NCBI GenBank assembly: GCA_049317345.1
Contig: JBMOIL010000001.1
Span: 1-40,240, forward strand
Origin: Candidatus Nanopelagicales bacterium
GTDB lineage: Bacteria; Actinomycetota; Actinomycetes; S36-B12
DNA: 40,240 bases
Direction of reading: 5' to 3'
Part shown: positions 11,915-29,142 of the stretch, in pieces
How the letters are laid out: the number at the start of each line of letters is the position of its first letter
Numbering within the stretch: the first letter of the stretch is position 1
Made by a program: the position numbers and the translations under genes
The notes under the pieces: model-generated
The model's database searches: none
What the model saw: only the letters and a program-made list of their open reading frames with translations
Told to the model about the DNA's origin: nothing

Positions 11915-11948
11915 TCGACGAGAGATAGCGAAGACGATGACAGCCCCC

Positions 11949-12722: not shown

Positions 12723-12749
12723 GTGCACCTCCCTTCGCGCATGCTCAGG

Positions 12750-14419: not shown

Positions 14420-14429
14420 CGGATCGACC

Positions 14430-15443: not shown

Positions 15444-16312
15444 TGCGGCCGACCCTCTTGGTTGTCCCAGCCCACGAGTTCCGCATCGACGCGACGGAGG
15501 TAGTCGTCCCATCCGGACGGGTCCGAGTTCACCGTGCGATTCAGGATCCGTGCGTGCTCGTCGGGGAAGTGCTCTGCCATGAGTTCAGCGCAGTGCTCGG
15601 CATAGACCCGATCGACCTCGTCTCGATCCGCGATCACGAAACGGTCGAATGTGGCCACGGTCCTGTTGCTGTGCACGGCATCCATGACCAGCGAATCCAC
15701 GGGGATCTTCAGGAACTCTGCAAGTTCCGGCGTGCGGGCGGTGATCTCGGAGGTCTTAAGCCACAGTGTGCTCTCAGCGGGAAGCACCGTCGGCATGTGA
15801 CGCATGTAGGTCGCCCAGGTGCGCATCAGAGCGGGAAGCGCAACCGTGTCGATGTCATCTCGTCCGAAACGAAAGGGGATGGTCCCCTCACCCGCCCAAT
15901 CGCCGTAGCTGTCTATCCAACCGCGCCGTCTCTCCTGGTAATCAGTTGGCATGCGCCGCACAGAGGTGCACATGCTCAGCATGGAATTCACCCACGAGCG
16001 CACATCACGGTACGTCACGATGAAACTTGCCTTGGGATACTGCTCCATGAGGACGTCCGCGTAGAGGTGATGGCAGGTCACCGCATCCATCTCCGCTCGC
16101 AGGGGCACGAATCGGCGCTTGACGGTCGCCCAGAAGGCGGCGTCGTCGATCTCGCCTCGCGCGCGCGCGACGCCGGCGGTCGCGAGGAAGTCCAACCACG
16201 TCTCGTGGCCCGCGCGGTACTCGCCCATGAGACCCGCGAGCGACGTCGATCCCGTCTTGGGCAATCCCACGACGTAGGCGTGGAAACGCAGCCAGGGCAT
16301 CTGACTACTCAC
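15440..16312 (-). CDS. Sulfotransferase-fold protein (PAPS-binding motifs), copy 2
   Basis: GTGA overlap with the YcaO stop; ATG at 16300 is an alternative start. It has a 5'-PSB-like GLPKTGSTS and a 3'-PB-like IVTYRDVRSWVNS. Confidence 0.6.
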   Translation of the reverse strand: MSSQMPWLRFHAYVVGLPKTGSTSLAGLMGEYRAGHETWLDFLATAGVARARGEIDDAAFWATVKRRFVPLRAEMDAVTCHHLYADVLMEQYPKASFIVTYRDVRSWVNSMLSMCTSVRRMPTDYQERRRGWIDSYGDWAGEGTIPFRFGRDDIDTVALPALMRTWATYMRHMPTVLPAESTLWLKTSEITARTPELAEFLKIPVDSLVMDAVHSNRTVATFDRFVIADRDEVDRVYAEHCAELMAEHFPDEHARILNRTVNSDPSGWDDYLRRVDAELVGWDNQEGRPQ

Positions 16313-18465
16313 AGGATCATGGCCCTCGGGTTCAGGTCGGCCTCGCCGTAGCCCCCATCGCGCCAGCCCAAGAGTGGAGGTACGTCGTAGAGCCGGCCGG
16401 GTGCGTAGCGATTCCAGAAATGGCGGATGCCCGGGGCGTAGGTCCGCACGATGCTCAGTTGCATGTCCGGCCGGCTGGAGTCGGCCCAGAGCACGGTGAG
16501 GCCAGCGTGCTCCATGCGAGCGACCACGTCATCGATGGCGTCACCCAGGGCGGCGTAGCGGGGCGCATCGGGCGGGGCGACATGACCGTGCGGGGCCATC
16601 CACGGGTGGTCGGCGACGGTCACCTGCGTGAACCACTTCTGCTCCCCGGGACCCATGCCCTCGACCGCATCGGTCACGCAGCGATAGAAGCCGGCCTGCA
16701 TCTGGGCCAGCTCGGTGAGGGCGCGGACGACGGCGAGAGCCGGATCGACGTGCGCGCCGTATCCCATGATCGGAGCCTGTGTGGACGGCATGCCCTGCGC
16801 AACAGCAACCGCGGCCGGGATCCCGAGGTCGGAGGTGATGTCCAGGACCCAAACCTCGTTGCCGAGCGCACGCTGCGGCGCGAGAGCCGCTTCGATCCGA
16901 GGGTCATCCCACGCAGCGAGGTCGAACGCCGGACGGTTGCACATCGGATGCCACCACAGCGCAACCGAGTCGCGTTCGACCAACTCGAGCAGGCCCTGGA
17001 GGATCGCCTCTTCAAGCGTGTTGCCGGCGGCAGCGCCGTTGGAAGATCCGCGGTAGGCGCCCGGATCCAGACCGGGCCAGTCGAACCACACGAGCGATGA
17101 CGGCAACCACCTCGTCTCACCGGTGCGCAGATCCGCGACCGGGCTCCAGTCGTGCTCGACCTCGACGTCGAAGGGGAGTGGGACCGGTCGATGGCCAGCC
17201 TGATCGGGCACATTCAGCATCCCGAACGCGGCAAGTCCCTCGGCCTTGCGTAATTGCGCTTCGCTGAAGAGCTCGACGTCATTGGGGTGGATGGCACCCT
17301 CGAGGTCAGCCATACGGGCCCGTCTGAACGGCTCGCCCCCCGTCGCCCGCAGTCCGCCTCGCTCCAAAGCCTCCGCGAGCGCCCCGGTGCGAGCGCCCGA
17401 CCGGGTGATCCCCTTCCCGCCCGCACCCGACCTCAGTCGCGAGGAGAATGCAACGGGATCGTCCAGCGCTGCGGCGTTCAGCCCGGACGAGTAGGAGCGC
17501 AGCTCACGGCGGGGCCCGGGGACGACGTAGGGCACCAGACCGACGACGTCATTGACGAGGTGAGCGTGGTCGTCCCATGTGTCCTCCGGGTCCACCGTGC
17601 GATAGCCGCCCCCGCCACCGTCGTCGAAGGTCGCGTCCTCCAGTGACAGCGGGCCATCGAGATGTCGCATCCGCGCAGTCGGGCCACCCGGCTCGCACGC
17701 GGCGCACCCAGGGACGGGAACGACCACGTACCGCTGCATCGCCGCAGTACTGACATCGAAGGCGACGACCTGCCTCTCCCACTCCGATGCTGTGGCAATC
17801 TGCGCGACGGCGGCAGCGGCAGCGGCCACGGATGACGGATGACGGATCGGGTGAGCCGGTGGTACCGCGAGTCCGACGCGCTGCGCGCCGACGACCTCGG
17901 CGGACAGGCGATGGCGCAAGCGAGCGTCCAGGCATGCGGGGCAGCGACCGCGCTCCCCGGGGACGAGAACCGGGCTGACGACCGCACGCGCCCCCCGCAT
18001 GCTCACGGCGACGTATGGACCGTCCGGCACCTGATCCGCCCCTTGCATCGCGAGCGCGTGGGGGACGACAACGACCGGGAGCGCGCCGGGTGAGTCGTGC
18101 ACATCTACGCCGATGGCGCGCAGCGCCTCCGAGAGGAGATGAGCGTCATCGAGGCCATCGGTGGCGTCGATAACACGCACGGAGGCAGGAGTGGGGCCCA
18201 CAGCCGAGCCTTGGTCGACAACATGTCCCGATGCTCGCCACTTGCCCAGGATTTCGCGCGCACGGTCACGAGCAAGTCCCGCGGACTCCGCACTCGCGAC
18301 GATCGTCTCCTCGTCGCCACCCGCGTCCACGGCACGCGCCAGGGGGCCGGCGCCTCGACCGGCGAGGCGCACGGGGCCATCACCACCGAACATCCAGACT
18401 TCAGCGTCGTCGGCGCTCACGATGATCGAGCGGTCAGGTCGCCACGACAGGCTCGCCGATGTCAT
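16309..18465 (-). CDS. Fused cyclodehydratase: E1/ThiF-like docking domain + YcaO (SagD-type) domain
   Basis: The N-terminal half has paired CxxC motifs (RCPACLD ... GCAACEPG), typical of the ocin-ThiF-like domain. The C-terminal half has YcaO motifs (GAGGKGITRSGARTGALAEALER, SSNGAAAGNTLEEAILQGLLELVERD). The start is set at ATG 18465, because the longer ORF (to 19005) would run antisense through precursor A1. ATG 18576 is also possible. Confidence 0.85.
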   Translation of the reverse strand: MTSASLSWRPDRSIIVSADDAEVWMFGGDGPVRLAGRGAGPLARAVDAGGDEETIVASAESAGLARDRAREILGKWRASGHVVDQGSAVGPTPASVRVIDATDGLDDAHLLSEALRAIGVDVHDSPGALPVVVVPHALAMQGADQVPDGPYVAVSMRGARAVVSPVLVPGERGRCPACLDARLRHRLSAEVVGAQRVGLAVPPAHPIRHPSSVAAAAAAVAQIATASEWERQVVAFDVSTAAMQRYVVVPVPGCAACEPGGPTARMRHLDGPLSLEDATFDDGGGGGYRTVDPEDTWDDHAHLVNDVVGLVPYVVPGPRRELRSYSSGLNAAALDDPVAFSSRLRSGAGGKGITRSGARTGALAEALERGGLRATGGEPFRRARMADLEGAIHPNDVELFSEAQLRKAEGLAAFGMLNVPDQAGHRPVPLPFDVEVEHDWSPVADLRTGETRWLPSSLVWFDWPGLDPGAYRGSSNGAAAGNTLEEAILQGLLELVERDSVALWWHPMCNRPAFDLAAWDDPRIEAALAPQRALGNEVWVLDITSDLGIPAAVAVAQGMPSTQAPIMGYGAHVDPALAVVRALTELAQMQAGFYRCVTDAVEGMGPGEQKWFTQVTVADHPWMAPHGHVAPPDAPRYAALGDAIDDVVARMEHAGLTVLWADSSRPDMQLSIVRTYAPGIRHFWNRYAPGRLYDVPPLLGWRDGGYGEADLNPRAMIL

Positions 18466-18633
18466 GTGCGAATCCGACGTTGTCGATTGGACAGGAACAC
18501 GTGGTGATAGTAGCCATGCCTGGGGGTCGCCGGCCCCGACAGAGAAACTCACCCCCGAAGGGGCCGCGAGGTCCATTCTTGACGTGGCATCATCGCTATG
18601 TAGGCCTACTTGGCCCAGACTCGGAGGTTTCCC
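18466..18633. promoter_or_regulatory. Divergent intergenic region between the tailoring operon (- strand) and the precursor/rSAM operon (+ strand)
   Basis: The call rests on position only. It is the sole gap from which both divergent operons can be transcribed. TTGACG lies at 18579-18584, but no well-spaced -10 box was found. Confidence 0.3.
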
Positions 18634-18903
18634 ATGGCTGTCCCGACACGATCCGAAGTGGAGGCGACCATCGCCGAGCGGATCGCCGCCGACCCCGCCT
18701 TCCGCGACGGGCTCCTCGCTGATCCCCGCGCCGTACTCTCCGAGGTCGTCGGCTTCGACATCCCCGACACCGTCCAGGTCGTCCTGCACGAGGAGTCCCT
18801 CACCCAGATCCACCTCACCATCCCCTCCAGCGCCGAGCTCAGCGAGAGCGACCTCGAGCTCGTCGCAGGCGGCAGGTGCTGGGTGGATGGGTGCACCACA
18901 TGA
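18634..18903 (+). CDS. NHLP-leader RiPP precursor A1 (core RCWVDGCTT)
   Basis: GGAGG lies 6 nt upstream of the ATG. The leader is MAVPTRSEVEATIAERIAADPAFRDGLLADPRAVLSEVVGFDIPDTVQVVLHEESLTQIHLTIPSSAELSESDLELVAGG. Confidence 0.9.
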   Translation: MAVPTRSEVEATIAERIAADPAFRDGLLADPRAVLSEVVGFDIPDTVQVVLHEESLTQIHLTIPSSAELSESDLELVAGGRCWVDGCTT

Positions 18904-19051
18904 GGTAGCACTCCGTGAAGGAGCAGGCAGCGACAAGTTGAGCCTGGCGCATGCCCCCCACTTGTTCATCGAAAGCGTTTCGTTCGGTGGCCCGTTTAGG
19001 CCCATACGTCAATGAACCTGTGCGTCAAGCGCTGTCGACTTGGAGGTCTCC

Positions 19052-19348
19052 ATGGCTGTTCCCACCCGATCCGAGGTCGAGGCGATCATCGCTGAGCGCA
19101 TCGCTGCCGATCCTGCCTTCCGCGACGCACTCCTCGCCAACCCGCGCGCCGTACTCTCCGAAATCGTCGGCCTCGACATCCCCGACGGTATTCAGATCGA
19201 CCTGCACGAGGAATCGCTCACCCAGATCCACCTCACCATTCCCGGCACAGAGGAACTCAGCGACTCCGACCTCGAACTCGTCGCGGGCGGGTTCTGGGCT
19301 GGCGATGAGGCATGCGAGAGCGGCTCGTGCTCATGCGACCACGGCTGA
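19052..19348 (+). CDS. NHLP-leader RiPP precursor A2 (core FWAGDEACESGSCSCDHG)
   Basis: GGAGG RBS. It has the same leader family, with the EIVGLDIPDGIQIDLHEE variant, and ends in LELVAGG. Confidence 0.9.
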   Translation: MAVPTRSEVEAIIAERIAADPAFRDALLANPRAVLSEIVGLDIPDGIQIDLHEESLTQIHLTIPGTEELSDSDLELVAGGFWAGDEACESGSCSCDHG

Positions 19349-19447
19349 CGCCCCCATGAATTGATCTCAACGGGGGGGTGACAGCGACACCCAAGGGGCC
19401 TAGAGTTGTCGGTCGACACGCCGTGCCTATCTACGTGGAGGCTTGCT

Positions 19448-19738
19448 ATGGCTGTTCCCACCCGCGCCGAAGTCGAGGCGACCATCGCCGAGCGCATCGC
19501 GGCCGACCCTGATTTCCGCGACGCGCTGCTGGCCGACCCTCGCGCCGTACTATCCGAGCTTGTCGGCTTCAACATCCCCGAGAGCGTCCAGATCGTCCTA
19601 CACGAGGAATCTCTCACCCAGATCCACCTCACCATCCCGTCCAGCCAGGAACTAAGCGAGGCCGACTTGGAACTGGTGGCTGGCGCCGGGGAGTGCTGGT
19701 CAGAGTTCAACATGTGCTGCTCCGCCGGCTGCATCTAG
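19448..19738 (+). CDS. NHLP-leader RiPP precursor A3 (core ECWSEFNMCCSAGCI after LELVAGAG)
   Basis: GGAGG lies upstream of the ATG. The leader begins MAVPTRAEVEATIAERIAADPDFRD... and has the GAG variant of the double-glycine site. Confidence 0.9.
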   Translation: MAVPTRAEVEATIAERIAADPDFRDALLADPRAVLSELVGFNIPESVQIVLHEESLTQIHLTIPSSQELSEADLELVAGAGECWSEFNMCCSAGCI

Positions 19739-19760
19739 CCGTCAACGACGTGGAGATCGC

Positions 19761-19835
19761 ATAGCTCTTCCAACGCGATCCGAGGTGGGACGCTCATCGC
19801 TGAGTGCACCGCCGCCGATCTTGCTGGTCGGACTG
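19761..19835 (+). pseudogene. Decayed precursor relic (leader 5' end only; ATG->ATA plus a 1-nt deletion)
   Basis: By eye, acgtggag-n5-ATAgctcttccaacgcgatccgaggt-gggacgctcatcgctgagtgcaccgccgccgatc aligns with the A2/A3 start region at roughly three quarters of positions. The homology fades after ~75 nt. Confidence 0.55.
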
Positions 19836-19935
19836 CAGACAAGCCGGGCTCTGTTCGTGTCCGACAACCTAGGGCGTTTGGACTCGACGGATCCACATGC
19901 GCTGTAGCGTCAACCCTGGATGGAAGAGGTGACTT

Positions 19936-21501
19936 GTGCTTCGGACGGATAGCCCAGTCGTGAGCACGCTCGAGCGGCCGCTCGTGCTTACGGACCGCTT
20001 GCGCCCCTTCGTGTGGCAGGGTCGTCAGTACGCACATACGTCGGCTGTGCCTTTGGCCTACCTATCTGTTTCTGCTCCGACATGGGCGTTGCTTCAGCAG
20101 TTCGCCACTGCGCGACGGCCAGGCGACCTCCTCTCCGAGGCAACGCTTGCGGACACGGTATTCCTCGATGAGTTGGTGACCGCTGGGATCCTTCTTGACG
20201 CCGAGCGGCCCGATCCCGTGCACTCCTTCACGCCGCGCTCGGATGCTGTGGCTACCTTCTTTCTCTATCCAACGAGTTCATGCAATCTGCGGTGCGTCTA
20301 CTGCTACGCGACTTCAGGCCCCGGCTCTGGCCCACGCCTGAGCCTTGAGCACGCACTCATGGCGATCGAGGACTTCTTCGAGGGCCTCGGACCGCAGGTG
20401 GAAGTGGCGGAGCTCAACTTCCACGGAGGGGGTGAGCCCACGACTAACTTCGCTGTGATGGAGTCCTCCTGGCAGCGCTTTCGTGCTCTCGCAGCCGAGC
20501 GGGGTCTTCGTTCATCTGTCAACACGATCACCAACGGCACATTCGGTCCGAGCGTGCTGCGCACACTGTCCCAGCCGGAATGGTCCGTCATGGTCTCCTA
20601 CGACGGGCCCCGCCAGGCAGACCAGAGGCCCACAGCCGCCGGGACCGACAGCCGAGATCGAGTCATCGCGAATCTGCGCGCCCTTCGCGAGTCGGGGAAG
20701 CACATCTCCACGCGCGCGACCCTGACACGAGATGGGCTCCCCTTCCTTAATGCCCTTGTCGAAGACGCCGCCGACGTGGGAATCGGATCGGTGCAAATCG
20801 AGGCGGCCAGTCTCGTGGGGCGGGGAGCCAACCTCGAGGACGGACCACCCGATCCGCTGGAGTTCGCCGAGGCATTCCTCGACGCCTTTCGCCTCGGGCT
20901 CAGCCTCGGAGTGCACGTGACGACCGCAGGCCTTTCCCATGCCCGGGTCGGCAACGGGCGGCACTGCGGGGCCATCTCAGGACTCACCGCGCTGACCCCG
21001 GATGGCTTTGTCTCAGCGTGCGTCGAGGCCACGGACGGCAATGACCCCGAGGATCCCTTCATCATTGGCACCCTCAACTCGATCACCTCCCGACTCGAGA
21101 TCTGGCCCCTGCGCGAAGAAAAGCTGCAGTCGCGCGTCGGCTACGACATGCCCCACTGCTCCTCGTGCTACATGGTGGACACGTGCGCAGGTGGCTGCGC
21201 CTCCCGTGCACGTGCGCGGCACGGGAGTGCCTTCGTGCGTGACGAGGCGCACTGCGTGGTCTCGCGACGCGTGAATCCCGAGGTGATGTCGGATCTGGCG
21301 GATGGACGGCTACTGCCGGACATCGGTTGGCAGCCCCGCGAAGCCGAGCTACGCGAAGGCGAGTCGTCGATCGCCGGGGCGACCGGTCGCGTGGTCGAGC
21401 TCGTGCCGAGCTACGCCCGGCGCGTGTGGAACGCCGACCCGCGTCGGCGCCCCTTCGTGCCGGTTCCGCTCCGGCCACAGTTCTTCCACCTCCCGGCCTA
21501 G
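19936..21501 (+). CDS. Radical SAM enzyme with a full SPASM domain and an N-terminal RRE-like (PqqD-like) region
   Basis: GTG start. It has CNLRCVYCY (Cx3Cx2C) and a complete 7-Cys SPASM pattern: HCGAISGLTALTPDGFVSAC (C-x12-G-x4-C), CSSCYMVDTCAGGC (Cx2Cx5Cx3C) and a distal C in EAHCV. About 110 aa precede the rSAM core. Confidence 0.85.
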   Translation: MLRTDSPVVSTLERPLVLTDRLRPFVWQGRQYAHTSAVPLAYLSVSAPTWALLQQFATARRPGDLLSEATLADTVFLDELVTAGILLDAERPDPVHSFTPRSDAVATFFLYPTSSCNLRCVYCYATSGPGSGPRLSLEHALMAIEDFFEGLGPQVEVAELNFHGGGEPTTNFAVMESSWQRFRALAAERGLRSSVNTITNGTFGPSVLRTLSQPEWSVMVSYDGPRQADQRPTAAGTDSRDRVIANLRALRESGKHISTRATLTRDGLPFLNALVEDAADVGIGSVQIEAASLVGRGANLEDGPPDPLEFAEAFLDAFRLGLSLGVHVTTAGLSHARVGNGRHCGAISGLTALTPDGFVSACVEATDGNDPEDPFIIGTLNSITSRLEIWPLREEKLQSRVGYDMPHCSSCYMVDTCAGGCASRARARHGSAFVRDEAHCVVSRRVNPEVMSDLADGRLLPDIGWQPREAELREGESSIAGATGRVVELVPSYARRVWNADPRRRPFVPVPLRPQFFHLPA

Positions 21502-21504
21502 ACC

Positions 21505-22485
21505 GTGGCGAGCAACCGCCTGTCGTGGATGAACTCCTGGGACAGAGCGGCAGACACCTTCCAGACACACGACGCACCCGCCTACGCACGGCTCGCGCGT
21601 GCCTTCGCCGACGAGCCCGAGGCAGGTGTTCCCGAGTCCCCGCTCGTCGTACTCGCGGCGCTGCGGTTGGCCGCATTCGAGGGGCGCGCCACCGACCCCT
21701 TCGTGGGCGACGTAGAAGCTACGAGGGCCGATGCGCTCCGTCTAGCCGACGAGATCAGCGAGGCGGTGGCAACGGGTCTGGTGCAGTACACCGATCCACT
21801 GCGTCTCGGCGACATCGTTCCGGGCCTGTGCCTCACCTCCCAGTGGTACCCCGGCCGGCCATTGCGCATCGTCGACCTGGGGACGTCCGCCGGCATGCTG
21901 CTCCTGGCTTCGGACATCTCCATCCGGTTTAGCAACGCCGCCTGGACGCCCCAGGGATCTCTCGAAGCCGTCGACTACCCCATGGCGGTCCCACGGGACC
22001 TGCTTGCCACACCCGTGCCGATTGAGTCCGCCGTGGGCATCGACCTCCGACCGCTCGACGCCCGTGACCCGCGCACTCCGAGGCTCCTGCATTCGTACCA
22101 GTGGCCCGGTCCGGCCCAGCGCGAGGAGCGCCTCGACCTGGGCATCCGGGTCGCCTCCCGACGCCCGCCTCACTTGATCGCGGGGGACGTGCTCGAGGTC
22201 GCTCCGGATGTGATCCGCGAGTGCCTGTCCCGCGAGGCGGTCACGGTCGTGATCGACAGCGCCTTCTCTCACTATCTCCCCGTGCATGCCCAGGTGCAGT
22301 TGGGCCGGATCCTCGACATGCTCCGCGGGCTCGGGCCACTGGTGATGGTGGGGCGCGGCCCACAAACAGCGGCTAACCGCGCACGCTCGACGATTCGGGC
22401 CATCGACATGACCGGACAGCGACGGATGGTGTACGCCGAAACCGACTTGCTCAGTGAATCGCCCGCATGGGTCGCGTCCCCGTGA
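21505..22485 (+). CDS. DUF2332-like protein (methyltransferase-like fold suspected)
   Basis: GTG start 3 nt after the rSAM stop. From memory it resembles DUF2332 proteins: YARLARAFADEPE, IVDLGTSAGMLLL (a glycine-rich loop) and LLHSYQWPGPAQREERL. Confidence 0.5.
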   Translation: MASNRLSWMNSWDRAADTFQTHDAPAYARLARAFADEPEAGVPESPLVVLAALRLAAFEGRATDPFVGDVEATRADALRLADEISEAVATGLVQYTDPLRLGDIVPGLCLTSQWYPGRPLRIVDLGTSAGMLLLASDISIRFSNAAWTPQGSLEAVDYPMAVPRDLLATPVPIESAVGIDLRPLDARDPRTPRLLHSYQWPGPAQREERLDLGIRVASRRPPHLIAGDVLEVAPDVIRECLSREAVTVVIDSAFSHYLPVHAQVQLGRILDMLRGLGPLVMVGRGPQTAANRARSTIRAIDMTGQRRMVYAETDLLSESPAWVASP

Positions 22486-22536
22486 AGTAGGGGGCATACT
22501 CAAGGAGTCACTAGACCATGATGCCCGGAGGTCCAC

Positions 22537-22821
22537 ATGGCTATTCCCACCCGCTCCGAAGTCGAGGCGATCATCGCTGAGCGCATCGCTGCCGATCCTG
22601 GCTTCCGCGACGCACTTCTCGCCGACCCGCGCGCCGTACTCTCCGAGGTCGTCGGCTTCGACATCCCTGAGACGGTACAGGTGGTCCTGCACGAGGAGTC
22701 CCTCACGCAGATCCACCTCACCATCCCCTCCAGCGAGGCACTCAGCGAGAGCGATCTCGAACTCGTCGCCGGAGGCATATTGTGCTGGTCCGACGGGTGC
22801 TACCCGTATCCGGCGTCTTAG
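22537..22821 (+). CDS. NHLP-leader RiPP precursor A4 (core ILCWSDGCYPYPAS)
   Basis: GGAGG RBS, conserved leader, LELVAGG site. Confidence 0.9.
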   Translation: MAIPTRSEVEAIIAERIAADPGFRDALLADPRAVLSEVVGFDIPETVQVVLHEESLTQIHLTIPSSEALSESDLELVAGGILCWSDGCYPYPAS

Positions 22822-22986
22822 CCCGCTTCGATCCAGCCGGTGAACAACCGCTGCCATCAAGAACTCCCCGGATAGCGGCGGGGATGGGTCTGCCGGAGTG
22901 GTTCACGGCAGTGCACGTGAAGGTGATGCAGCCGAACTCAACATCACCCTGCCGGGCCCGCTCGACACTGATGCCCGGAGGTCCCC

Positions 22987-23268
22987 ATGGCTATTCCCAC
23001 TCGCTCCGAAGTCGAGGCGATCATCGCCGAGCGCATCGCCGCCGATCCTGGCTTCCGCGACACCTTGCTCGCCGACCCCCGCGCCGTGCTGTCCGAGGTC
23101 GTCGGCTTCGACATCCCCGAGAGCGTCCAGGTCGTCCTGCACGAGGAATCCCTGACCCAGATCCACCTCACCATCCCCTCGAGCGAGACACTCAGCGAAG
23201 CCGAGCTCGAACTCGTCGCCGGAGGCGCATGCTGGGCCGATGGCGGCGGCACCGTGATCTGCGCCTAA
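22987..23268 (+). CDS. NHLP-leader RiPP precursor A5 (core ACWADGGGTVICA)
   Basis: GGAGGTCCCC-ATG context, conserved leader, LELVAGG site. Confidence 0.9.
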   Translation: MAIPTRSEVEAIIAERIAADPGFRDTLLADPRAVLSEVVGFDIPESVQVVLHEESLTQIHLTIPSSETLSEAELELVAGGACWADGGGTVICA

Positions 23269-23389
23269 CGAGTGCAGTGGACCCCGCGACATGCCCTCAG
23301 GGCCAAGAGTTCACGCGCAAACCGCCGCGCGCCCCTCAAGTAGGGGGCATACTCGATGAACCACTCACCCCTGATGCTCGGAGGTCCCC

Positions 23390-23674
23390 ATGGCTATTCC
23401 CACCCGCTCCGAAGTCGAAGCGATCATCGCTGAACGCATCGCCGCCGACCCCGCCTTCCGCGACACCCTGCTGGCCGACCCCCGCGCCGTGCTGTCCGAG
23501 GTTGTCGGCTTCGACATCCCAGACAACGTCCAGGTCGTCCTACACGAGGAATCCCTCACCCAGATCCACCTCACCATCCCCTCCAGCGAGGAACTCAGTG
23601 AGAGCGACCTCGAACTCGTCGCCGGAGCAGGGTGGGGGGATGACATACGAAATCGCCCAGAGGGCTGCGCTTAG
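23390..23674 (+). CDS. NHLP-leader RiPP precursor A6 (core WGDDIRNRPEGCA after LELVAGAG)
   Basis: GGAGGTCCCC-ATG context, conserved leader, GAG variant site. Confidence 0.85.
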   Translation: MAIPTRSEVEAIIAERIAADPAFRDTLLADPRAVLSEVVGFDIPDNVQVVLHEESLTQIHLTIPSSEELSESDLELVAGAGWGDDIRNRPEGCA

Positions 23675-23733
23675 CCACCGGGCCCGCAGAGCCGCCATAC
23701 TCACCAATCACGCAGGCCCATACGGAGGACCCC

Positions 23734-24012
23734 ACGGCCGTTCCCACTCGTTCTGAGGTCGAGGCGATTATTGCTGAGCGCATCGCCGCCGACCCCGGCT
23801 TCCGCGACACACTGCTGGCCGACCCGCGCGCCGTACTCTCCGAAATCGTCGGCCTCGACATCCCCGACACCGTCCAGATCGACCTACACGAAGAATCCCT
23901 CACCCAAATCCACCTCACCATCCCCTCCAGCGAGGCACTCAGCGACGCCGACCTCGAACTCGTCGCCGGAGGAACGTGCTGGTCGGAAGGGTGCTATCAC
24001 CCCGAGCCCTGA
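23734..24012 (+). pseudogene. Precursor A7 with a lost start codon (ACG in place of ATG); otherwise an intact frame (core TCWSEGCYHPEP)
   Basis: The context is tacGGAGGaccccACGgccgttcccactcgt.... The frame is open from 23644 to TGA at 24010-24012 with no in-frame ATG, GTG or TTG between the upstream stop and the leader. It translates to (T)AVPTRSEVEAIIAERIAADPGFRDTLL...LELVAGGTCWSEGCYHPEP. Confidence 0.7.
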
Positions 24013-24132
24013 CGAGCGCATCGGACCCCGCGACATGACCTCAGGGTCAAGAGTTCACGCGGAAACCACGGCGCGCCCCTGTGGTGGGGGAATACTCAAT
24101 AGATCACTCGTCCCTGATGCTCGGAGGTCCCC

Positions 24133-24438
24133 ATGGCTATTCCCACCCGCTCCGCAGTCGAAGCGATCATCGCTGAGCGCATCACCGCCGACCCCGCCTT
24201 CCGCGACACACTCCTCGCCGACCCGCGCGCCGTACTCTCCGAAATCGTCGGCCTCGACATCCCCGACACCGTCCAGATCGACCTGCACGAAGAATCCCTG
24301 ACCCAGATCCACCTCACCATCCCCGCCAGCGAGGCACTCAGCGACGCCGACCTCGAACTCGTCGCCGGCGGCGGAGTCTGGGGACCCCCAGTGAGTTGCG
24401 GAACCCCCGATCCGGTCACCTGCGAAAACCCCGGCTGA
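24133..24438 (+). CDS. NHLP-leader RiPP precursor A8 (core GVWGPPVSCGTPDPVTCENPG)
   Basis: GGAGGTCCCC-ATG context. The leader has the ITADP and EIVGLDIPDTVQIDLHEE variants and a LELVAGG site. Confidence 0.9.
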   Translation: MAIPTRSAVEAIIAERITADPAFRDTLLADPRAVLSEIVGLDIPDTVQIDLHEESLTQIHLTIPASEALSDADLELVAGGGVWGPPVSCGTPDPVTCENPG

Positions 24439-24439
24439 G

Positions 24440-24504
24440 AGGTCCCTCCGGCACTTCTCACTCAGCCAGAGGTCGAGGAGATCATCACCGAGCGAGTTGC
24501 CGAT
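24440..24504 (+). pseudogene. Decayed precursor relic (RBS-like gaggtccc plus ~12 leader codons, ..PEVEEIITERVAD..)
   Basis: gagaggtccctccggcacttctcactcagccagaggtcgaggagatcatcaccgagcgagttgccgat parallels ggaggtccccatggct...gaagtcgaggcgatcatcgctgagcgcatcgccgccgat. It has no start codon, and the homology ends after GAT. Confidence 0.5.
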
Positions 24505-24633
24505 GGGGCGGGGGGAACCGGCAGTCGATATCGGCGGTCAGGAAGTCCGCGGGCGATCCCTAGCGGCTAGCCGCGCCTGGGCCCCATACTGAGACCACCT
24601 GCACGAGTTCCGTGCCTGGCACCGGAGGTCCCC

Positions 24634-24918
24634 ATGGCCGTCCCCACCCGCTCTGAAGTCGAGGCAATCATCGCTGAGCGCATCGCCGCCGATCCTGGCT
24701 TCCGCGACACTCTCCTCGCCGATCCTCGCGCTGTGCTGTCCGAGGTTGTCGGCTTCGACATCCCCGAGGGCGTCCAGGTCGTCCTGCACGAGGAATCCCT
24801 CACCCAAATCCACCTCACCATCCCCTCCAGCGAGGAACTCAGCGAGAGCGACCTCGAACTCGTCGCCGGAGGAATGTGCTGGTCGGATGTGTGCAGTTGC
24901 CTCTCCATCGGGCCCTGA
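24634..24918 (+). CDS. NHLP-leader RiPP precursor A9 (core MCWSDVCSCLSIGP)
   Basis: GGAGGTCCCC-ATG context, conserved leader, LELVAGG site. Confidence 0.9.
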   Translation: MAVPTRSEVEAIIAERIAADPGFRDTLLADPRAVLSEVVGFDIPEGVQVVLHEESLTQIHLTIPSSEELSESDLELVAGGMCWSDVCSCLSIGP

Positions 24919-25038
24919 CGAGCGCATCGGACCCAGTGACATGCCCTTAGGGTCACGAGTTCACGCGGAAACCACCGCGCGCCCCTGAGATAGGGACATA
25001 CTCAACGAACCACTCGCCCCTGATGCTCGGAGGTCCCC

Positions 25039-25311
25039 ATGGCTATTCCCACCCGCTCCGCAGTCGAAGCGATCATCGCTGAGCGCATCGCCGCCGATCC
25101 TGGCTTCCGCGACGCACTTCTCGCCGACCCGCGCGCCGTACTCTCCGAGGTCGTCGGCTTCGACATCCCTGAGACGGTACAGGTGGTCCTGCACGAGGAG
25201 TCCCTCACGCAGATCCACCTCACCATCCCCTCCAGCGAGGCACTCAGCGACGCCGACCTCGAGTTGGTTGCCGGCGGGGTGTGCTGGTCCAACCCGGCCT
25301 GCGTGGGATGA
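25039..25311 (+). CDS. NHLP-leader RiPP precursor A10 (core VCWSNPACVG)
   Basis: GGAGGTCCCC-ATG context, conserved leader, LELVAGG site. A 158-nt tract is identical to A4. Confidence 0.9.
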   Translation: MAIPTRSAVEAIIAERIAADPGFRDALLADPRAVLSEVVGFDIPETVQVVLHEESLTQIHLTIPSSEALSDADLELVAGGVCWSNPACVG

Positions 25312-25324
25312 CCTGCGGTCCGTA

Positions 25325-25624
25325 GTGGCGCCTACTCCCACCCGCTCCGAGGTCGAAGCGATCATCGCTGAACGCATCGCCGCCGACCCCGCCTTCCGCG
25401 ACACCCTGCTCGCTGACCCCCGCGCCGTTCTGTCCGAGGTCGTCGACGTCAACATCCCCGAAGGCGTACAGATCGTCCTGCACGAGGAGTCCCTCACCCA
25501 GATCCACCTCACCATCGCCTCGTCGGGAAGTCTCACCGAATCCGACCTCGAACTCGTCGCCGGCGGGTTTTGGCGGGGCGGCCATGACGGAGGTCCCGGT
25601 CCCCACTGGTCGGACACCTCCTGA
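25325..25624 (+). CDS. NHLP-leader RiPP precursor A11, divergent N-terminus, Cys-free core (FWRGGHDGGPGPHWSDTS)
   Basis: The probable GTG start lies 13 nt after the A10 stop, with no GGAGG. The leader is (M)APTPTRSEVEAIIAERIAADPAFRDTLL...IASSGSLTESDLELVAGG. The ORF track's ATG at 25268 lies inside A10. Confidence 0.65.
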   Translation: MAPTPTRSEVEAIIAERIAADPAFRDTLLADPRAVLSEVVDVNIPEGVQIVLHEESLTQIHLTIASSGSLTESDLELVAGGFWRGGHDGGPGPHWSDTS

Positions 25625-25647
25625 TGCGGCACGACCTGCGGTCCCTA

Positions 25648-25932
25648 GTGGCGCCCGTCCGCACCCGCTCCGCAGTCGAAGCGATCATCGCTGAGCGCAT
25701 CACCGCCGATCCTGGCTTCCGCGACACCCTCCTCGCCGACCCGCGCGCCGTACTCTCCGAAATCGTCGGCCTCGACATCCCCGACACCGTCCAGATCGAC
25801 CTGCACGAAGAATCCCTCACCTAGATCCACCTCACCATCCCCTCCAGCGACGAACTCACCGAATCCGACCTCGAACTCGTCGCCGGAGGCGGCAATTGCT
25901 GGTCGAACAGTTGTCGCTTTCCGGGAGCGTGA
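25648..25932 (+). pseudogene. Precursor A12 interrupted by an in-frame TAG (at the conserved Gln of SLTQIHL); the downstream frame is intact (core GNCWSNSCRFPGA)
   Basis: TAG at 25822-25824 sits where all other copies have CAG or CAA. The same frame continues IHLTIPSSDELTESDLELVAGGGNCWSNSCRFPGA to TGA at 25930-25932. The start is GTG 25648 or ATG 25624. Confidence 0.7.
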
Positions 25933-26010
25933 AGATGAGATCGACTTTCCCGTACGTCGTGAGATCTGCAGGGGTAGGCCTTCCGCACCCATGACGCCAC
26001 TGCGTACGCG

Positions 26011-26089: not shown

Positions 26090-26872
26090 ATGGAGGGCAG
26101 CGTCTCCCCCGTGGCGAGGGTCGATCAGGTAGCCACTTTCGCTCGCCCACGCATGTGGGTGGCCCTGATCGGGATCATCGTGCTGCTCCTGGCATTCATT
26201 GCCTGGGGCTTCATCGCCCGGGCACCGGTCAGCGTCGCTGTCGGCGGTCTCATCACCACATCCGGTGGCGTCTCCGCCATCAGGAGTTCGCTGACCGGCA
26301 CGGTGAGCGCGGTCTACGTCGACATCGGGGACCGGGTCGACGTCGGCACCAGCGTCGTGTCGATCAAGGACGATCTCGGTGCCTCGGCAGAAGTCAGGGC
26401 CAAGATCCCCGGCACCGTGCTCGAGGTCGCCACAAGGGTCGGAGCCTTTGTCACCGCAGGACAGGAACTGATGATCCTGCAGACAAACGACGAGCCGCTC
26501 ACCGCCATCGCACTCGTGCCGGTGACCGACTCTGGTCGCATCACATCGGGCCAACAGGTGCTCATCTCCCCCTCCTCCGCATCACCATCGGAGTACGGCT
26601 ACATCCAGGGCACCGTGGACTCGGTAAGCGGTATTCCCATCAGTTCAGCGCGCCTCGAGCAGCTCACTGCGGGGATTGCCGGGCTGGCCAATTCCGAGGA
26701 CCTGACCGGGCCGGTGCTCGAGGTCAGCATCGTTCTCGCGTCTGCGGACACGACCTCGGGCTATGCCTGGACCATCGGCGCGGGTCCGCCGTTCGCGCTG
26801 CTCGCGGGGACGCCCTTCACAGGAGAGATCATCGTGGGCGAGCAGGCCCCGCTCGTGCGATTGCTGGGCTGA
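26090..26872 (+). CDS. NHLP-type bacteriocin system secretion protein (HlyD-like), set 2
   Basis: It has the same architecture as 4122-4922: VDQVATFARPRMWVALIGIIVLLLAFIAW as the TM helix, then a beta-rich body. An in-frame TAG at 26078 fixes the start. A TGATG junction links it to the next gene. Confidence 0.7.
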   Translation: MEGSVSPVARVDQVATFARPRMWVALIGIIVLLLAFIAWGFIARAPVSVAVGGLITTSGGVSAIRSSLTGTVSAVYVDIGDRVDVGTSVVSIKDDLGASAEVRAKIPGTVLEVATRVGAFVTAGQELMILQTNDEPLTAIALVPVTDSGRITSGQQVLISPSSASPSEYGYIQGTVDSVSGIPISSARLEQLTAGIAGLANSEDLTGPVLEVSIVLASADTTSGYAWTIGAGPPFALLAGTPFTGEIIVGEQAPLVRLLG

Positions 26873-29142
26873 TGCACGTCCCCGTGCGCCTCGCACTCGG
26901 CGCCAACGAGACGGGCGTCGCCTGCCTGGCGATGCTCCTCGCCGCGTGCGGGACGCGCATCGGCCAGGAGGAACTGATCAGGACCATCGGCGTCACGCGC
27001 GACGGACTGAGCTTCCGTGAACTCGCCGACACCGCTGAGGTTTACGGCGTCCGTGCCGAGATCCGGTCCGGCAACCCCGACGTACTCGACTCAATGGCCC
27101 TTCCCGCGATGGTGCGATGGGGCCACTCGCACGCTCGCGTACTTGAGTCGCGCACCCGCAGCGGCTGGGTCGCCGTCGACCCGATCCTGGGGCGCCTGCA
27201 GATCAGCGATGACGACCTGCGGGCGGCCTGGGGCGGGGAGGCGCTCGCGCTGGACGGATCGACGGCGCGCCGAGGAGTTAAGTTGTGGACGGGCGTGGGA
27301 CGTCGGCTGAAGGGCAGTGGGCCCGGAATCGCGTTCGTCGTGCTTGCCGGCCTCGCGCTCATCATCCCGGGCCTGCTGGCCCCGGCGCTCATCCGCGCAT
27401 TCGTCGACGAGTACCTGATTGCCGGCGACCGGCAGGGATCGCTCAGCATCTTCATCGGGCTCGTGGCCGCGTTGGCGGTCGGTCTCGTGATCGGCTACCT
27501 GCAGGCACGCGGCCTGCAGCGCCTGCTCACCGTCTCCGTCATCCGCAACGCCTCCCACTTCGTCTGGCATCTCCTGCGCATGCCCGCGTGGTTCCTGACC
27601 CAGCGCGACGCCACGACCCTCTCCTACCGGGTGCGCCTGAACGAGCAACTCGCCGACGTAATCTCAGGTCGGTTCGCAACGGCGCTGCTAGCCGAGCTCA
27701 CCAGCGTGTTCTACCTCGTGGTGATGTTCGTCTATTCCCCGATCCTCGGTCTCATCGCCCTATCCGGACCCCTGCTCGTCATCGTCCTCGTCTGGCGCAT
27801 CACGCTGCTGCGCTCGGAGGTACGCCAGCGGCAGGCGCGCGAAGTCTCGGTAACGGCCACCGAACTAGGCGTCACCTTGCGCATGATCGAAACGCTGAAG
27901 GCGACCGGAAGTGAAGATGTCGCTTTCCAGCGCACCTTTGCATCCGTGGGCCGCCGCATCACCCTGGGGTATACCCGGCTATGGGGCTATCTCGCCATGG
28001 TCCCGGTGCTGGCCAACTCCCTCGCCACCGCTCTCGTCCTCTGCGTCGGGGCCTACCTCGTCATGCAGGGCAGCATCACCCAGGGCACCCTGGCGGCGTT
28101 CAGCATCCTGCTCGGTGGCTTCCTTGCTCCCCTCATCATCCTCGTGCCGACCATCGACTCGGTGCTCAATCTCCGGGGAGCCTGGGAGCAGTTGAACGAT
28201 GTGCTCAACCAGCCCGTGGAAGCGTCACTTGGGGACCCCTACGCCGATGGGGTCGACCCAGACGTCCCTGCGGAGGAGCGTGCGACCACGCGGCCAGGGG
28301 TATCTCATCCGGCATCAGCGCAGGCCACAGCGGTCGAAGAAGAGGAGGATCCCCTCGACCTGCTCGCCGCGGCCAGCAGGTCGGGGGTCAGCGGACGGCG
28401 CAAGCGTGGGCTGGCCATCGATCCGTGGGCGGCCTCACTCACCCTCAACGACGTGACCTTCGGCTACTCGCCGCGGCAGCCGCCGCTGCTCGACTGCGTA
28501 TCCCTGCAGGCTGAGCCAGGCCGCGTGATCGCCATCGTCGGTCCTAGCGGCAGCGGTAAGTCGACAGTCGGGCGCCTTGTCGGCGGGCTCTACCGGCCCT
28601 GGAGCGGAGCGGTCCTCCTCGACGGGCGCCCCATCGAGTCCTACCCCAGGGATGCGCGTGCGCGCGAGGTGACCTTCGTCAACCAAGACGTCGTGCTCTA
28701 CGCCGCCACAATCCGCGACAACATCACGATGTTTGATCCAGGCATCCGCGATCGCGACATCATCGCCGCCGCCCGGGATGCCTGCGTCCATGACGACATT
28801 ACGGCGCGACCGGGAGGGTACGACTCGATACTGGCTGAGGATGGCCGAGATCTGTCCGGAGGGCAGCGTCAGCGCCTGGTGATCGCCCGCGCACTGGTGC
28901 GCAGGCCTCGGCTCATCGTCCTCGATGAGGCAACGAGTGCGCTCGATGCGCGGACCGAGGCGCAGGTAGTCCAGCACCTGCGCGACCGCGGATGCACGGT
29001 GCTCGTCGTCGCTCATCGCCTGTCCACCGTGCGTGATGCGGACGAGATCATCGTGCTCGACGACGGCCGTGTCGCCCAGCGGGGCACCCACTCCACGCTG
29101 GCCGGCGAGCCTGGCCCCTACCTGGATCTGATGTCGTCATGA
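26872..29142 (+). CDS. ABC exporter with a degenerate C39-like N-terminal domain (permease/ATPase), set 2
   Basis: ATG at 26872 overlaps the HlyD2 stop. The N-terminus RLALGANETGVACLAMLL aligns with ILQMEVTECGAASLGMVL of set 1, with Gln->Ala and the catalytic Cys->Thr (acg at 26911-26913). It has a TM region, Walker A GPSGSGKST, signature LSGGQRQR and Walker B LIVLDEATSALD. Confidence 0.85.
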   Translation: MHVPVRLALGANETGVACLAMLLAACGTRIGQEELIRTIGVTRDGLSFRELADTAEVYGVRAEIRSGNPDVLDSMALPAMVRWGHSHARVLESRTRSGWVAVDPILGRLQISDDDLRAAWGGEALALDGSTARRGVKLWTGVGRRLKGSGPGIAFVVLAGLALIIPGLLAPALIRAFVDEYLIAGDRQGSLSIFIGLVAALAVGLVIGYLQARGLQRLLTVSVIRNASHFVWHLLRMPAWFLTQRDATTLSYRVRLNEQLADVISGRFATALLAELTSVFYLVVMFVYSPILGLIALSGPLLVIVLVWRITLLRSEVRQRQAREVSVTATELGVTLRMIETLKATGSEDVAFQRTFASVGRRITLGYTRLWGYLAMVPVLANSLATALVLCVGAYLVMQGSITQGTLAAFSILLGGFLAPLIILVPTIDSVLNLRGAWEQLNDVLNQPVEASLGDPYADGVDPDVPAEERATTRPGVSHPASAQATAVEEEEDPLDLLAAASRSGVSGRRKRGLAIDPWAASLTLNDVTFGYSPRQPPLLDCVSLQAEPGRVIAIVGPSGSGKSTVGRLVGGLYRPWSGAVLLDGRPIESYPRDARAREVTFVNQDVVLYAATIRDNITMFDPGIRDRDIIAAARDACVHDDITARPGGYDSILAEDGRDLSGGQRQRLVIARALVRRPRLIVLDEATSALDARTEAQVVQHLRDRGCTVLVVAHRLSTVRDADEIIVLDDGRVAQRGTHSTLAGEPGPYLDLMSS

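Follow-up and report, generated by a model that had tools for sequence, protein, structure and literature searches.

Described systems and the locus under study

The described pathways closest to the one considered here are the ranthipeptides (PapB freyrasin, QhpD-type and CteB SCIFF/thermocellin systems), the triceptides and the multi-precursor loci for peptides that are made on ribosomes and modified after translation (RiPPs). PapB and QhpD are makers of Cys-Asp/Glu thioethers and CteB is a thioether synthase, TigE is a cyclopropylglycine synthase that forms C-C bonds, ChlB is a triceptide synthase and SuiB is a Lys-Trp enzyme. NHLP and Nif11 precursor families occur with TOMM (thiazole/oxazole-modified microcin; YcaO) maturases, for which work by Haft et al. 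in 2010, as cited in PMC11002830, is reportedly the source, and prochlorosin-like systems are also multi-precursor systems. In a stretch of 40,240 nucleotides from a Candidatus Nanopelagicales bacterium (contig JBMOIL010000001.1, positions 1 to 40,240; this whole stretch is called the window below), 12 tandem NHLP-type precursor genes of ~90 residues each were found by translation on the + strand at 18.6-25.9 kb, and most of their cores keep a four-residue island, C-W-x-[D/E/N]. This island is very probably the common site in the family, and we give a probability of about 0.4 to the reading that it may be the site of a non-alpha thioether from Cys(i) to Asp/Asn/Glu(i+3) made by the radical-SAM (S-adenosylmethionine)/SPASM maturase encoded at 19936-21501. 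We infer the bond itself from conservation, co-variation and gene co-occurrence, all of which are observed.

The acceptors of PapB are Asp and Glu, and this enzyme accepts Cys-Xn-Asp with n = 0-6 (PMC9413430), so that a two-residue gap between Cys and acceptor is chemically feasible. NxxcB bonds the Asn beta carbon to the Cys sulfur (PMC11851443). What defines triceptides is a link between an aromatic residue and a beta carbon within aromatic-X2-X3 motifs (PMC11499958), and dynobactin contains a Trp-Asn link of the cyclophane kind (PMC10288494). The latter paper also cites DarE and DynB, each a single radical-SAM enzyme that forms two types of bond (PMC10288494).

With the ranthipeptides, the system described here has in common a maturase that combines a RiPP recognition element (RRE), radical-SAM and SPASM domains, short repeated Cys...Asp/Glu core motifs, and D/E acceptors, to which N is added as for NxxcB; among named hidden Markov models (HMMs) the enzyme matches PapB, QhpD and the SCIFF maturase best, and among structures CteB. 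Unlike the C-x3-D of PapA, the spacing here is C-x-x-[DEN], with C-x3 in 0/26 cores of a distant precursor branch, which is not the spacing of a PapB substrate, and there is usually one unit per core rather than the six of PapB/freyrasin. Further differences from ranthipeptides are the NHLP leader, a Trp that would lie within the proposed ring, about 80 additional residues that form a C-terminal domain of the enzyme and, in the window, the addition of YcaO/SagB, two dioxygenases and two sulfotransferase-like genes. The streptococcal NxxcB system (N-x-x-C; PMC11851443) shares the Asn beta-carbon acceptor and the two-residue gap but differs in that the Cys is upstream here, with the N-x-x-C orientation at chance level, and in host, leader and gene context. 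Triceptides and dynobactin (PMC11499958, PMC10288494) have in common with this system a radical-SAM/SPASM enzyme and an aromatic-X2-X3 motif with Trp, sometimes Tyr, a motif that the cores here do contain; unlike in triceptides, X3 is limited to D/N/E, a conserved Cys stands ahead of the aromatic residue, and the enzyme falls outside the AmcB, YhhB and DynA maturase families, with a fold nearer CteB than ChlB.

The NHLP/TOMM and prochlorosin-like systems share the NHLP leader, the double-glycine site, the C39-peptidase ATP-binding cassette (ABC) exporters and the clustering, at a single locus, of numerous precursors whose leaders are near-identical and whose cores are hypervariable, and the difference from them is that most cores here keep a four-residue island tied to an extra radical-SAM enzyme. 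Judged from its sequences, the system looks like an NHLP/TOMM multi-precursor locus onto which a ranthipeptide or triceptide pathway has been grafted. In the literature searched, no described system has a motif of this spacing and orientation, with the Cys upstream, a gap of two residues, a D/N/E acceptor and the Trp in between, and no published description of this radical-SAM/precursor family was found either; the system is probably a new variant of a known modified-peptide type.

Conservation of the C-W-x-[D/E/N] island

The leader ends in LELVAGG or LELVAGA in 12/12 window precursors, and the presence of VAGG or VAGA in every precursor together with Peptidase_C39 ABC genes in the cluster fits double-glycine/C39 export; the predicted cleavage site was placed from this motif and the two C39-peptidase ABC transporters. 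With the cores so delimited, Trp is found at core position 2-4 in 12/12, Cys-Trp in 8/12 and W-x-[D/E/N] in 10/12 (the exceptions being A2, with WAGD, and A8, with WGP), while A11, which has no Cys, fits W-x-[DEN] at its second Trp only (WSD). All of these counts agree with a sequence-only reading of the same DNA made earlier, which had placed a Trp within the first four residues of every core. That reading had also reported a second Cys 1-5 residues further on in eight cores. Seven of them (A1, A3, A4, A7, A9, A10 and A12) have the complete C-W-x-[DEN]-x(1-5)-C signature, and the eighth, A2, has neither Cys-Trp nor W-x-D; in A5 the gap to the second Cys is six residues. The island pattern goes beyond what chance would give.

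The whole comparison drew on about 160 relatives, and a close-family set of 124 distinct cores was assembled from the best 120 of 378 A4 homologues and from fetched loci (given below by L numbers); a scan of a genome collection with the radical-SAM protein gave three close loci, on short contigs, and a metagenome scan with a DUF2332 alignment gave two. Trp stands within the first five core residues in 123/124 of these cores, and W-x-[DEN] is found in 96/123. At the second position after Trp, the 86 cores with Cys-Trp have D (57), N (19) or E (10) in 86/86 cases, compared with 10/37 of the Trp cores lacking Cys-Trp (Fisher p = 3e-19, a value that counts sequences and not independent events). 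The residue directly after Trp is Ser in 63/86 Cys-Trp cores. A further Cys is missing from 9/86, e.g., NCWTNNKFL and TCWSDGFPYPAS, and the downstream Cys therefore lies outside the conserved unit. The column entropy of the 124 Trp-anchored cores is 3.07 bits at -2, 1.68 at -1, 0 at the Trp, 2.09 at +1, 2.35 at +2 and 3.3-3.7 from +3 onward, and the value at -2 indicates that the island is set off from the leader by a variable residue. The Gly, Ser and Asp codons vary synonymously (e.g., Asp is GAT in 9 and GAC in 8 cases), which indicates that selection acts on the peptide and not on the DNA. Hitch-hiking of the island with the conserved leader at the DNA level was considered and is ruled out by this synonymous variation together with the variable -2 residue.

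The Trp feature is specific to this family, since 58 of the 94 parseable tails of remoter NHLP precursors (profile search, 50%-identity representatives) lack a Trp near the cleavage site. A loss of the Trp in homologous clusters had been named in the sequence-only reading as an observation that would speak against it, and the close-family cores do not have this loss. The invariance of the Trp claimed there holds among these close cores and fails farther out, where some distant cores have Tyr. In P0233, an A2-like core from the search of representatives, FCAGDEPCESGSCSCDHG corresponds to FWAGDEACESGSCSCDHG of the window with Cys in place of Trp, and it is among the very few cores without the aromatic residue. 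In the L005 core VCMSNWD, the Trp has gone from the island position and C-x-x-N is retained.

Seven single-precursor clusters, whose radical-SAM enzymes are 51-63% identical to that of the window, carry C-x-x-[DEN] in 7/7 cores. The full C-W-x-[DEN] motif is kept in L021 (core LCWTNCPSDMGP), L028 (VCWTECPNDIGP), L024 (TDICWGNCAPQLP) and L026 (ICWADSCTSGP), none of which has YcaO, SagB or PhyH within 8-10 kb; the only neighbour of the enzyme is a methyltransferase in L024 and a sulfotransferase-like protein in L026. The L027 core LAWGECTQDTVGGL has W-x-E and C-x-x-D, and the L022 core AGWDPNAVCAEDYGGGA has Trp and C-x-x-D with Pro at the second position after Trp; both lack a Cys ahead of Trp, and both clusters are without YcaO, SagB and PhyH. 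L023 (core GACWDNCNCGV) is the sole cluster of the seven with YcaO (1/7), and a PhyH gene is found in 0/7. The radical-SAM enzyme is thus the only constant partner of the island across the clusters compared. A further candidate cause of the conservation, namely that the C39 peptidase recognizes the island, was rejected, as L024 and L026 keep the island although no C39 transporter is encoded close by.

Homologues of the L028 precursor form a distant branch of 26 Cys-containing cores and nine Cys-less ones. A typical core of this branch, V-C-W-T-E-C-P-N-D-x-G-P, holds a tandem pair of C-x-x-[DEN] units of which the second is Trp-free (e.g., V-CWTE-CPND-MGP). C-x-x-[DEN] occurs in 26/26 Cys-containing cores, compared with 6.3 on average and 13 at most over 2000 shuffles, while C-x3-[DEN], the PapB spacing, occurs in 0/26 and [DEN]-x-x-C, the NxxC orientation, in 4/26, which is the chance level. 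[WYF]-x-[DEN] is found in 22/26 against a shuffle mean of 5.7. Tyr substitutes for Trp in two distant cores, GGCYADCPDD and DCYLDCPQD, and W-x-[DE] is found without an upstream Cys in others, e.g., AGWGECPDD, LAWGDCTSD, VWTDY and NFWSDD. Taken together, the sequence-only proposal that W-x-[DEN] is the common recognition or modification unit stands in so far as the island is family-wide, and has to be changed in that the unit that co-varies is C-x-x-[D/E/N] (86/86 close and 26/26 distant cores).

A natural variant is provided by L006 and L007, a cluster found in several samples that keeps YcaO, the PhyH and other tailoring genes, DUF2332 and the exporters and has no radical-SAM gene. All eight L006/L007 precursors are of a second type with Gly-Trp (type II, see below), and no Cys-Trp core is found among them, whereas L010, a relative whose flanks are 94% identical to those of L006 in nucleotide sequence, possesses the radical-SAM gene, and three Cys-Trp cores lie immediately 5' of that gene. 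Despite the loss of this gene, the Trp is still invariant in L006, so that Trp conservation does not require the radical-SAM enzyme. At L006 5996-7171 (and in L007), a truncated precursor (…LELVSGA GWGGGSG…) runs in frame into the DUF2332 gene; this fusion looks like the scar of one deletion that took the Cys-Trp precursors together with the radical-SAM gene.

In the window, three precursors lie 5' of the radical-SAM/SPASM gene and the DUF2332 gene and the other nine on the 3' side. A4 passes the NHLP leader profile TIGR03793 (59.9 bits, cutoff 50.9), and the leaders are 76-91% identical to that of A4 (11 leaders aligned, A12 being left out). Type I precursors have VAGG followed by x(0-3)-C-W-x-[DEN], and type II precursors have VAGA followed by G-W with no Cys ahead of the Trp. 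To type I belong A1 (18634-18903, with an NHLP leader, the ribosome-binding site GGAGG and an ATG start; core RCWVDGCTT at 18874-18903), A4 (22537-22821; core ILCWSDGCYPYPAS, 22777-22821), A5 (22987-23268; core ACWADGGGTVICA, 23227-23268), A9 (24634-24918; core MCWSDVCSCLSIGP, 24874-24918) and A10 (25039-25311; core VCWSNPACVG, 25279-25311). A6 (23390-23674) is of type II, with VAGA followed by the core GWGDDIRNRPEGCA (23630-23674) and no Cys preceding the Trp, and a core near-identical to it was found in L006, the cluster without the radical-SAM gene. The A2 gene (19052-19348) encodes the core FWAGDEACESGSCSCDHG (19292-19348), already compared with P0233 above, in which no Cys precedes the Trp and C-S-C-D provides a C-x-x-D unit. 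A3 (19448-19738; core GECWSEFNMCCSAGCI, 19688-19738) has a VAGA leader end, A8 (24133-24438; core GVWGPPVSCGTPDPVTCENPG, 24373-24438) has neither Cys-Trp nor W-x-[DEN], and the Cys-less A11 (25325-25624; core FWRGGHDGGPGPHWSDTS, 25568-25624) probably starts with GTG. All of these genes, like A7 and A12, are on the + strand.

Two of the copies show signs of damage. In A7 (23734-24012; core TCWSEGCYHPEP, 23974-24012), ACG (23734-23736) replaces the ATG at the expected start and the conserved GGAGG ribosome-binding site upstream is intact, which suggests either a poorly translated or a decaying copy. The A12 gene (25648-25932; core GNCWSNSCRFPGA, 25891-25932) has a GTG instead of an ATG start codon, and its leader is interrupted in frame by TAG (25822-25824) at a codon that is CAG (Gln) both in the other leaders and in L014, a 99% identical strain; because this TAG replaces the leader CAG, A12 is probably a pseudogene or the product of a sequencing error. 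The intact copy in L014 has another core, GECWSNDNRCAGV. The precursor array acts as a fast-evolving cassette region, with recombination between near-identical leaders as the presumed cause. A comparison of window 22500-25950 with L014 9500-11500 found flanking genes that are 98-99% identical, five downstream precursors in L014 versus nine in the window, and just two cores in common. That the variable remainder of the cores supplies diversity, as had been proposed from the window alone, is borne out by the different core set of this strain.

The radical-SAM/SPASM maturase and possible roles of the island

The gene at 19936-21501 (+) encodes the proposed C-W-x-[D/E/N] enzyme. Its membership in the radical-SAM/SPASM proteins is indicated by a CX3CX2C motif (CNLRCVYC), by the Pfam Radical_SAM match (40.4, cutoff 29.5) and by the SPASM model TIGR04085 (32.2, cutoff 27), with seven Cys in the translation arranged as C-x17-C ... 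CX2CX5CX3C ... C. The N-terminus forms an RRE-like domain of beta strand and three helices, and the C-terminus has a conserved extension of ~80 residues. No named NCBIfam maturase family cutoff was reached by the enzyme: the scores were 96.8 for nif11-type TIGR04064 (cutoff 518.7), 84.5 bits for PapB-family NF047865 (340), 72.4 for QhpD TIGR03906 (453), 65.9 for the SCIFF maturase TIGR03974 (425) and, among the cyclophane families, 52.4 for AmcB (425), 49.6 for DynA (450) and 40.2 for YhhB (445). Among the named NCBIfam models that cover the enzyme along its whole length, PapB and QhpD match best, with the SCIFF maturase next, whereas AmcB, DynA and YhhB align on the N-terminal core only. The nearest sequence in the PDB is CteB (5WGG, 7e-17), followed by TigE. 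With an AlphaFold2 model (predicted local distance difference test, 88.9), Foldseek gave CteB as a full-length fold match (1.7e-19), then TigE (2.8e-19) and anSME (6e-13), with ChlB (1.5e-11, the 13th match) and SuiB (2e-11) ~8 orders of magnitude weaker than CteB. Six CteB positions (F112, F152, T186, S210, H363 and Q364), profiled as catalytic-site positions following PMC10288494, correspond to Y, H, I, S, V and E in a phmmer alignment. The enzyme family comprises about 90 protein clusters at identities between 100% and 50%, below which there is a gap to ~32%, and is distributed over Actinomycetota, Thermoleophilia and other phyla.

According to the thioether reading, the enzyme would bind the conserved NHLP leader through its N-terminal RRE-like domain and abstract a hydrogen from the beta carbon of Asp or Asn, or from the beta or gamma carbon of Glu. 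This carbon would then be joined to the sulfur of the Cys three residues upstream, giving a four-residue ring with a ranthipeptide-type thioether at the core N-terminus, in which the Trp would be a separately conserved aromatic residue, perhaps an enzyme docking residue or a pharmacophore. The variable remainder could subsequently be tailored by YcaO/SagB, the two PhyH-like dioxygenases, the sulfotransferase-like proteins and DUF2332, and the C39-peptidase ABC transporters would cleave past Gly-Gly or Gly-Ala and export the product. Type II precursors (VAGA then G-W, e.g., A6) would not be substrates of the radical-SAM enzyme.

The thioether is favoured because the upstream Cys is coupled with D/N/E in 86/86 cores, because Trp-free C-x-x-D units are conserved in the distant branch, because the L005 core keeps C-x-x-N without a Trp at that place, because the Cys-Trp cores vanish together with the radical-SAM gene in L006, and because the enzyme resembles PapB, QhpD and CteB. 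Several observations weigh on the other side. The enzyme reaches no curated family cutoff, and its similarity predicts the chemistry only weakly since the second-best structural neighbour, TigE, makes C-C bonds. The aromatic-x-[DEN] pattern is nearly as conserved (22/26 distant cores) and persists without a Cys three residues upstream (AGWGEC, LAWGDC, VWTDY, NFWSDD), and the replacement of W by Y (CYAD, CYLD) looks like selection for an aromatic ring. A11 has WSD yet no Cys, nine homologous cores of the distant branch, seen as precursor sequences alone, are Cys-less, and the statistics given above count related sequences rather than independent events.

The same radical-SAM enzyme could instead make a triceptide-type three-residue cyclophane, with a D/E/N beta-carbon radical attacking the indole of the Trp two residues upstream and the neighbouring Cys serving as a thiazole, as a disulfide partner of the downstream Cys or as a contact to an auxiliary cluster; this is the main rival of the thioether and somewhat less probable than it. 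The Trp is the most conserved single residue of the close cores, only Tyr replaces it in two distant cores that retain D at +2, the enrichment of [WYF]-x-[DEN] in the distant branch is well above the shuffle mean of 5.7, and W-x-[DEN] occurs without an upstream Cys in at least five distant and five close cores. Moreover, NCWTNNKFL, with only an upstream Cys, and the L027 core encoded beside the radical-SAM gene, with only a downstream Cys, share W-x-[E/N] alone. A cyclophane would, however, leave unexplained the 86/86 coupling of the upstream Cys with D/N/E and the units C-P-x-D and C-[AS]-[ES]-D, which lack a Trp and are conserved in the distant branch. The Trp is also invariant in L006 despite the absence of the radical-SAM gene, the L022 core adjoining its enzyme has Pro where the acceptor would be expected, and the AmcB, YhhB and DynA HMMs and the ChlB and SuiB structures match worse than the thioether synthases. 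Since C-x-x-[DEN] and aromatic-x-[DEN] are independently enriched and each occurs without the other in enzyme-linked cores, the enzyme might also target the D/E/N carbon and make several kinds of bond, e.g., a thioether in C-x-x-D plus a cyclophane in W-x-D or a Cys-Trp link, or a composite three-residue Cys-Trp-Asp crosslink. This is improbable, being less parsimonious and demanded by nothing in the sequence data, and the literature searched gave no example of a Cys-Trp bond made by a radical-SAM enzyme. There is a similarly slim prospect that the system represents a new RiPP crosslink class in which the D/N/E beta carbon is captured, after hydrogen abstraction, by two adjacent upstream partners. 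The product would then be either an N-terminal cap built from Cys, Trp and Asp together, tricyclic or doubly bridged, or a Cys-Trp bond not seen before; if true, such a composite cap would be a constant warhead on hundreds of hypervariable peptides of freshwater Actinomycetota.

Two further explanations dispense with a crosslink in the island. The island could be a docking or recognition element for the maturases, or the part of the mature peptides that binds the target, with the radical-SAM enzyme acting elsewhere in the core; the persistence of the Trp in L006 and the existence of cores without the island in clusters that bear the radical-SAM gene (A8, VYWSGSSS...) are in line with this. Such a role seems doubtful to us, as the cores of the minimal clusters L024 and L026 are short and variable beyond the island, leaving the island and the next Cys as the only conserved candidate site, and as the strict D/N/E set equals the known acceptor residues of radical-SAM enzymes. 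Alternatively, D/E/N could be kept for beta-hydroxylation by the PhyH-like enzymes or the Cys for thiazole formation by YcaO/SagB, chemistries that the sequence-only reading had listed and for which the window cluster and its close relatives carry two PhyH-like genes, YcaO and SagB. This is highly improbable, because L021, L024, L026 and L028 keep the full motif, and L022 and L027 keep C-x-x-D and Trp, in surroundings that lack those genes, while L023 has YcaO and no PhyH, and L006 keeps YcaO and PhyH yet has lost its Cys-Trp cores. Hydroxylation and azole formation are therefore disfavoured as the cause of the conservation, and of the chemistries listed earlier only those of the radical-SAM enzyme go with a gene that co-occurs with the motif.

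If the island is the substrate site, whether as a thioether or otherwise, C-W-x-D/N/E or the broader C-x-x-D/E/N would become a four-residue tag that predicts crosslinking by a clade of ~90 clusters. It would extend ranthipeptide chemistry by a novel spacing and orientation, or the triceptides by a variant flanked by Cys, with one conserved cap that can be combined with hypervariable tails and a second tailoring set (YcaO/SagB, dioxygenases and sulfotransferase-like proteins). The family itself provides minimal clusters (L024, L026), a variant without the radical-SAM gene (L006) and near-identical strains with swapped cassettes (window and L014).

Other genes of the cluster

Directly 3' of the radical-SAM gene lies a gene for a DUF2332 protein (21505-22485, +; PF10094, 1.5e-32) with the glycine-rich stretch VDLGTSAGML. 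The two genes are syntenic in L001-L003, L005, L008, L010-L014 and L017, and the DUF2332 gene is kept in L006 although the radical-SAM gene is gone. The elements looked for in a TOMM locus, a YcaO protein with a leader-binding domain and a SagB dehydrogenase, are both present. The former is a fused TOMM leader-binding/YcaO cyclodehydratase (16309-18507, start approximate, -; YcaO 1.9e-71, 241.5 bits; TIGR03882 65.3, cutoff 36.9), which scores below the cutoff of the SagD subfamily model (170.7 versus 219.25), and the latter is a SagB-type dehydrogenase (9939-11210, +; Pfam Nitroreductase and ThcOx; TIGR03605 101.2, cutoff 78.4).

Between them, a block of six tailoring genes on the - strand (11207-16312) encodes, with families assigned by Pfam where given, a sulfotransferase-like protein (11207-11914), a PhyH paralogue (11949-12728), a protein without assigned family (12750-13688), a PhyH-like iron/2-oxoglutarate enzyme (13685-14446), an alpha/alpha-toroid-like protein without assigned family (14430-15512) and a second sulfotransferase-like protein (15440-16312). 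The block is syntenic in L005, L007 and L008 at 61-88% identity (tblastn) and is absent from the distant clusters that retain the motif. In L014 (3219-3320), ~440 nt are missing relative to window 15353-15892, at the junction of the sulfotransferase-like gene and the 14430-15512 gene, and both genes are truncated. Sulfotransfer_4-like genes recur beside this radical-SAM family, as in the window pair, at L023 11509-12399 and at L026 8712-9605 (in a minimal three-gene cluster), and no RiPP role for the Sulfotransfer_4 Pfam family was found in the literature searched.

In the toroid-like protein of 360 residues, the stretch GWGYNVxVPQDADSTAW resembles WRYYxDIPPDxDDTAL of a ~320-residue protein of the distant clusters (L021 7563-8531, L022 7658-8611, L023 12392-13381 and L027 5689-6609), which is fused to DUF2332 in L021. 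The latter stretch is reminiscent of DxDDTA, a motif found in class II terpene cyclases, with weak matches to hopene cyclase/SQHop_cyclase_C. Profile-profile comparison (hhalign) of the unassigned window proteins with their distant partners was weak, giving a probability of 19% for the toroid-like pair and 0.9% for the other. The distant clusters also have a conserved protein of ~350-370 residues (L021 8904-10004, L022 8895-10004, L023 13326-14411, L027 6958-8004 and L028 6919-8004), whose gene shows translational coupling with that of the radical-SAM enzyme in four of five of them; the L023 copy is on the opposite strand, ~1.7 kb from the radical-SAM gene. Three members of this protein family show 37-44% pairwise BLAST identity, with no Pfam match and no relative detected in the window.

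The export module downstream of the precursors (26090-31292, +) consists of HlyD (26090-26872), a C39-peptidase ABC transporter (26869-29142) and a second ABC transporter (29139-31292), as assigned by Pfam HlyD_3, Peptidase_C39, ABC_membrane and ABC_tran. A paralogous module of HlyD, C39-ABC and ABC genes is found at 4122-9936, with the Peptidase_C39 ABC gene at 4922-7108, and the two modules may provide separate routes for the two precursor types. The two C39 transporters flanking the cluster are just ~33% identical (tblastn). Just 5' of the first export module are genes for a copper amine oxidase (1334-3208) and an M10-type metallopeptidase (3277-4005). In L023 (4238-7552), the NHLP/radical-SAM/YcaO set is combined with a lanthipeptide synthetase of the LanM type and with a separate precursor whose end reads …GGG YTFPRTDWVYCDNPWTNVWCTLKC.

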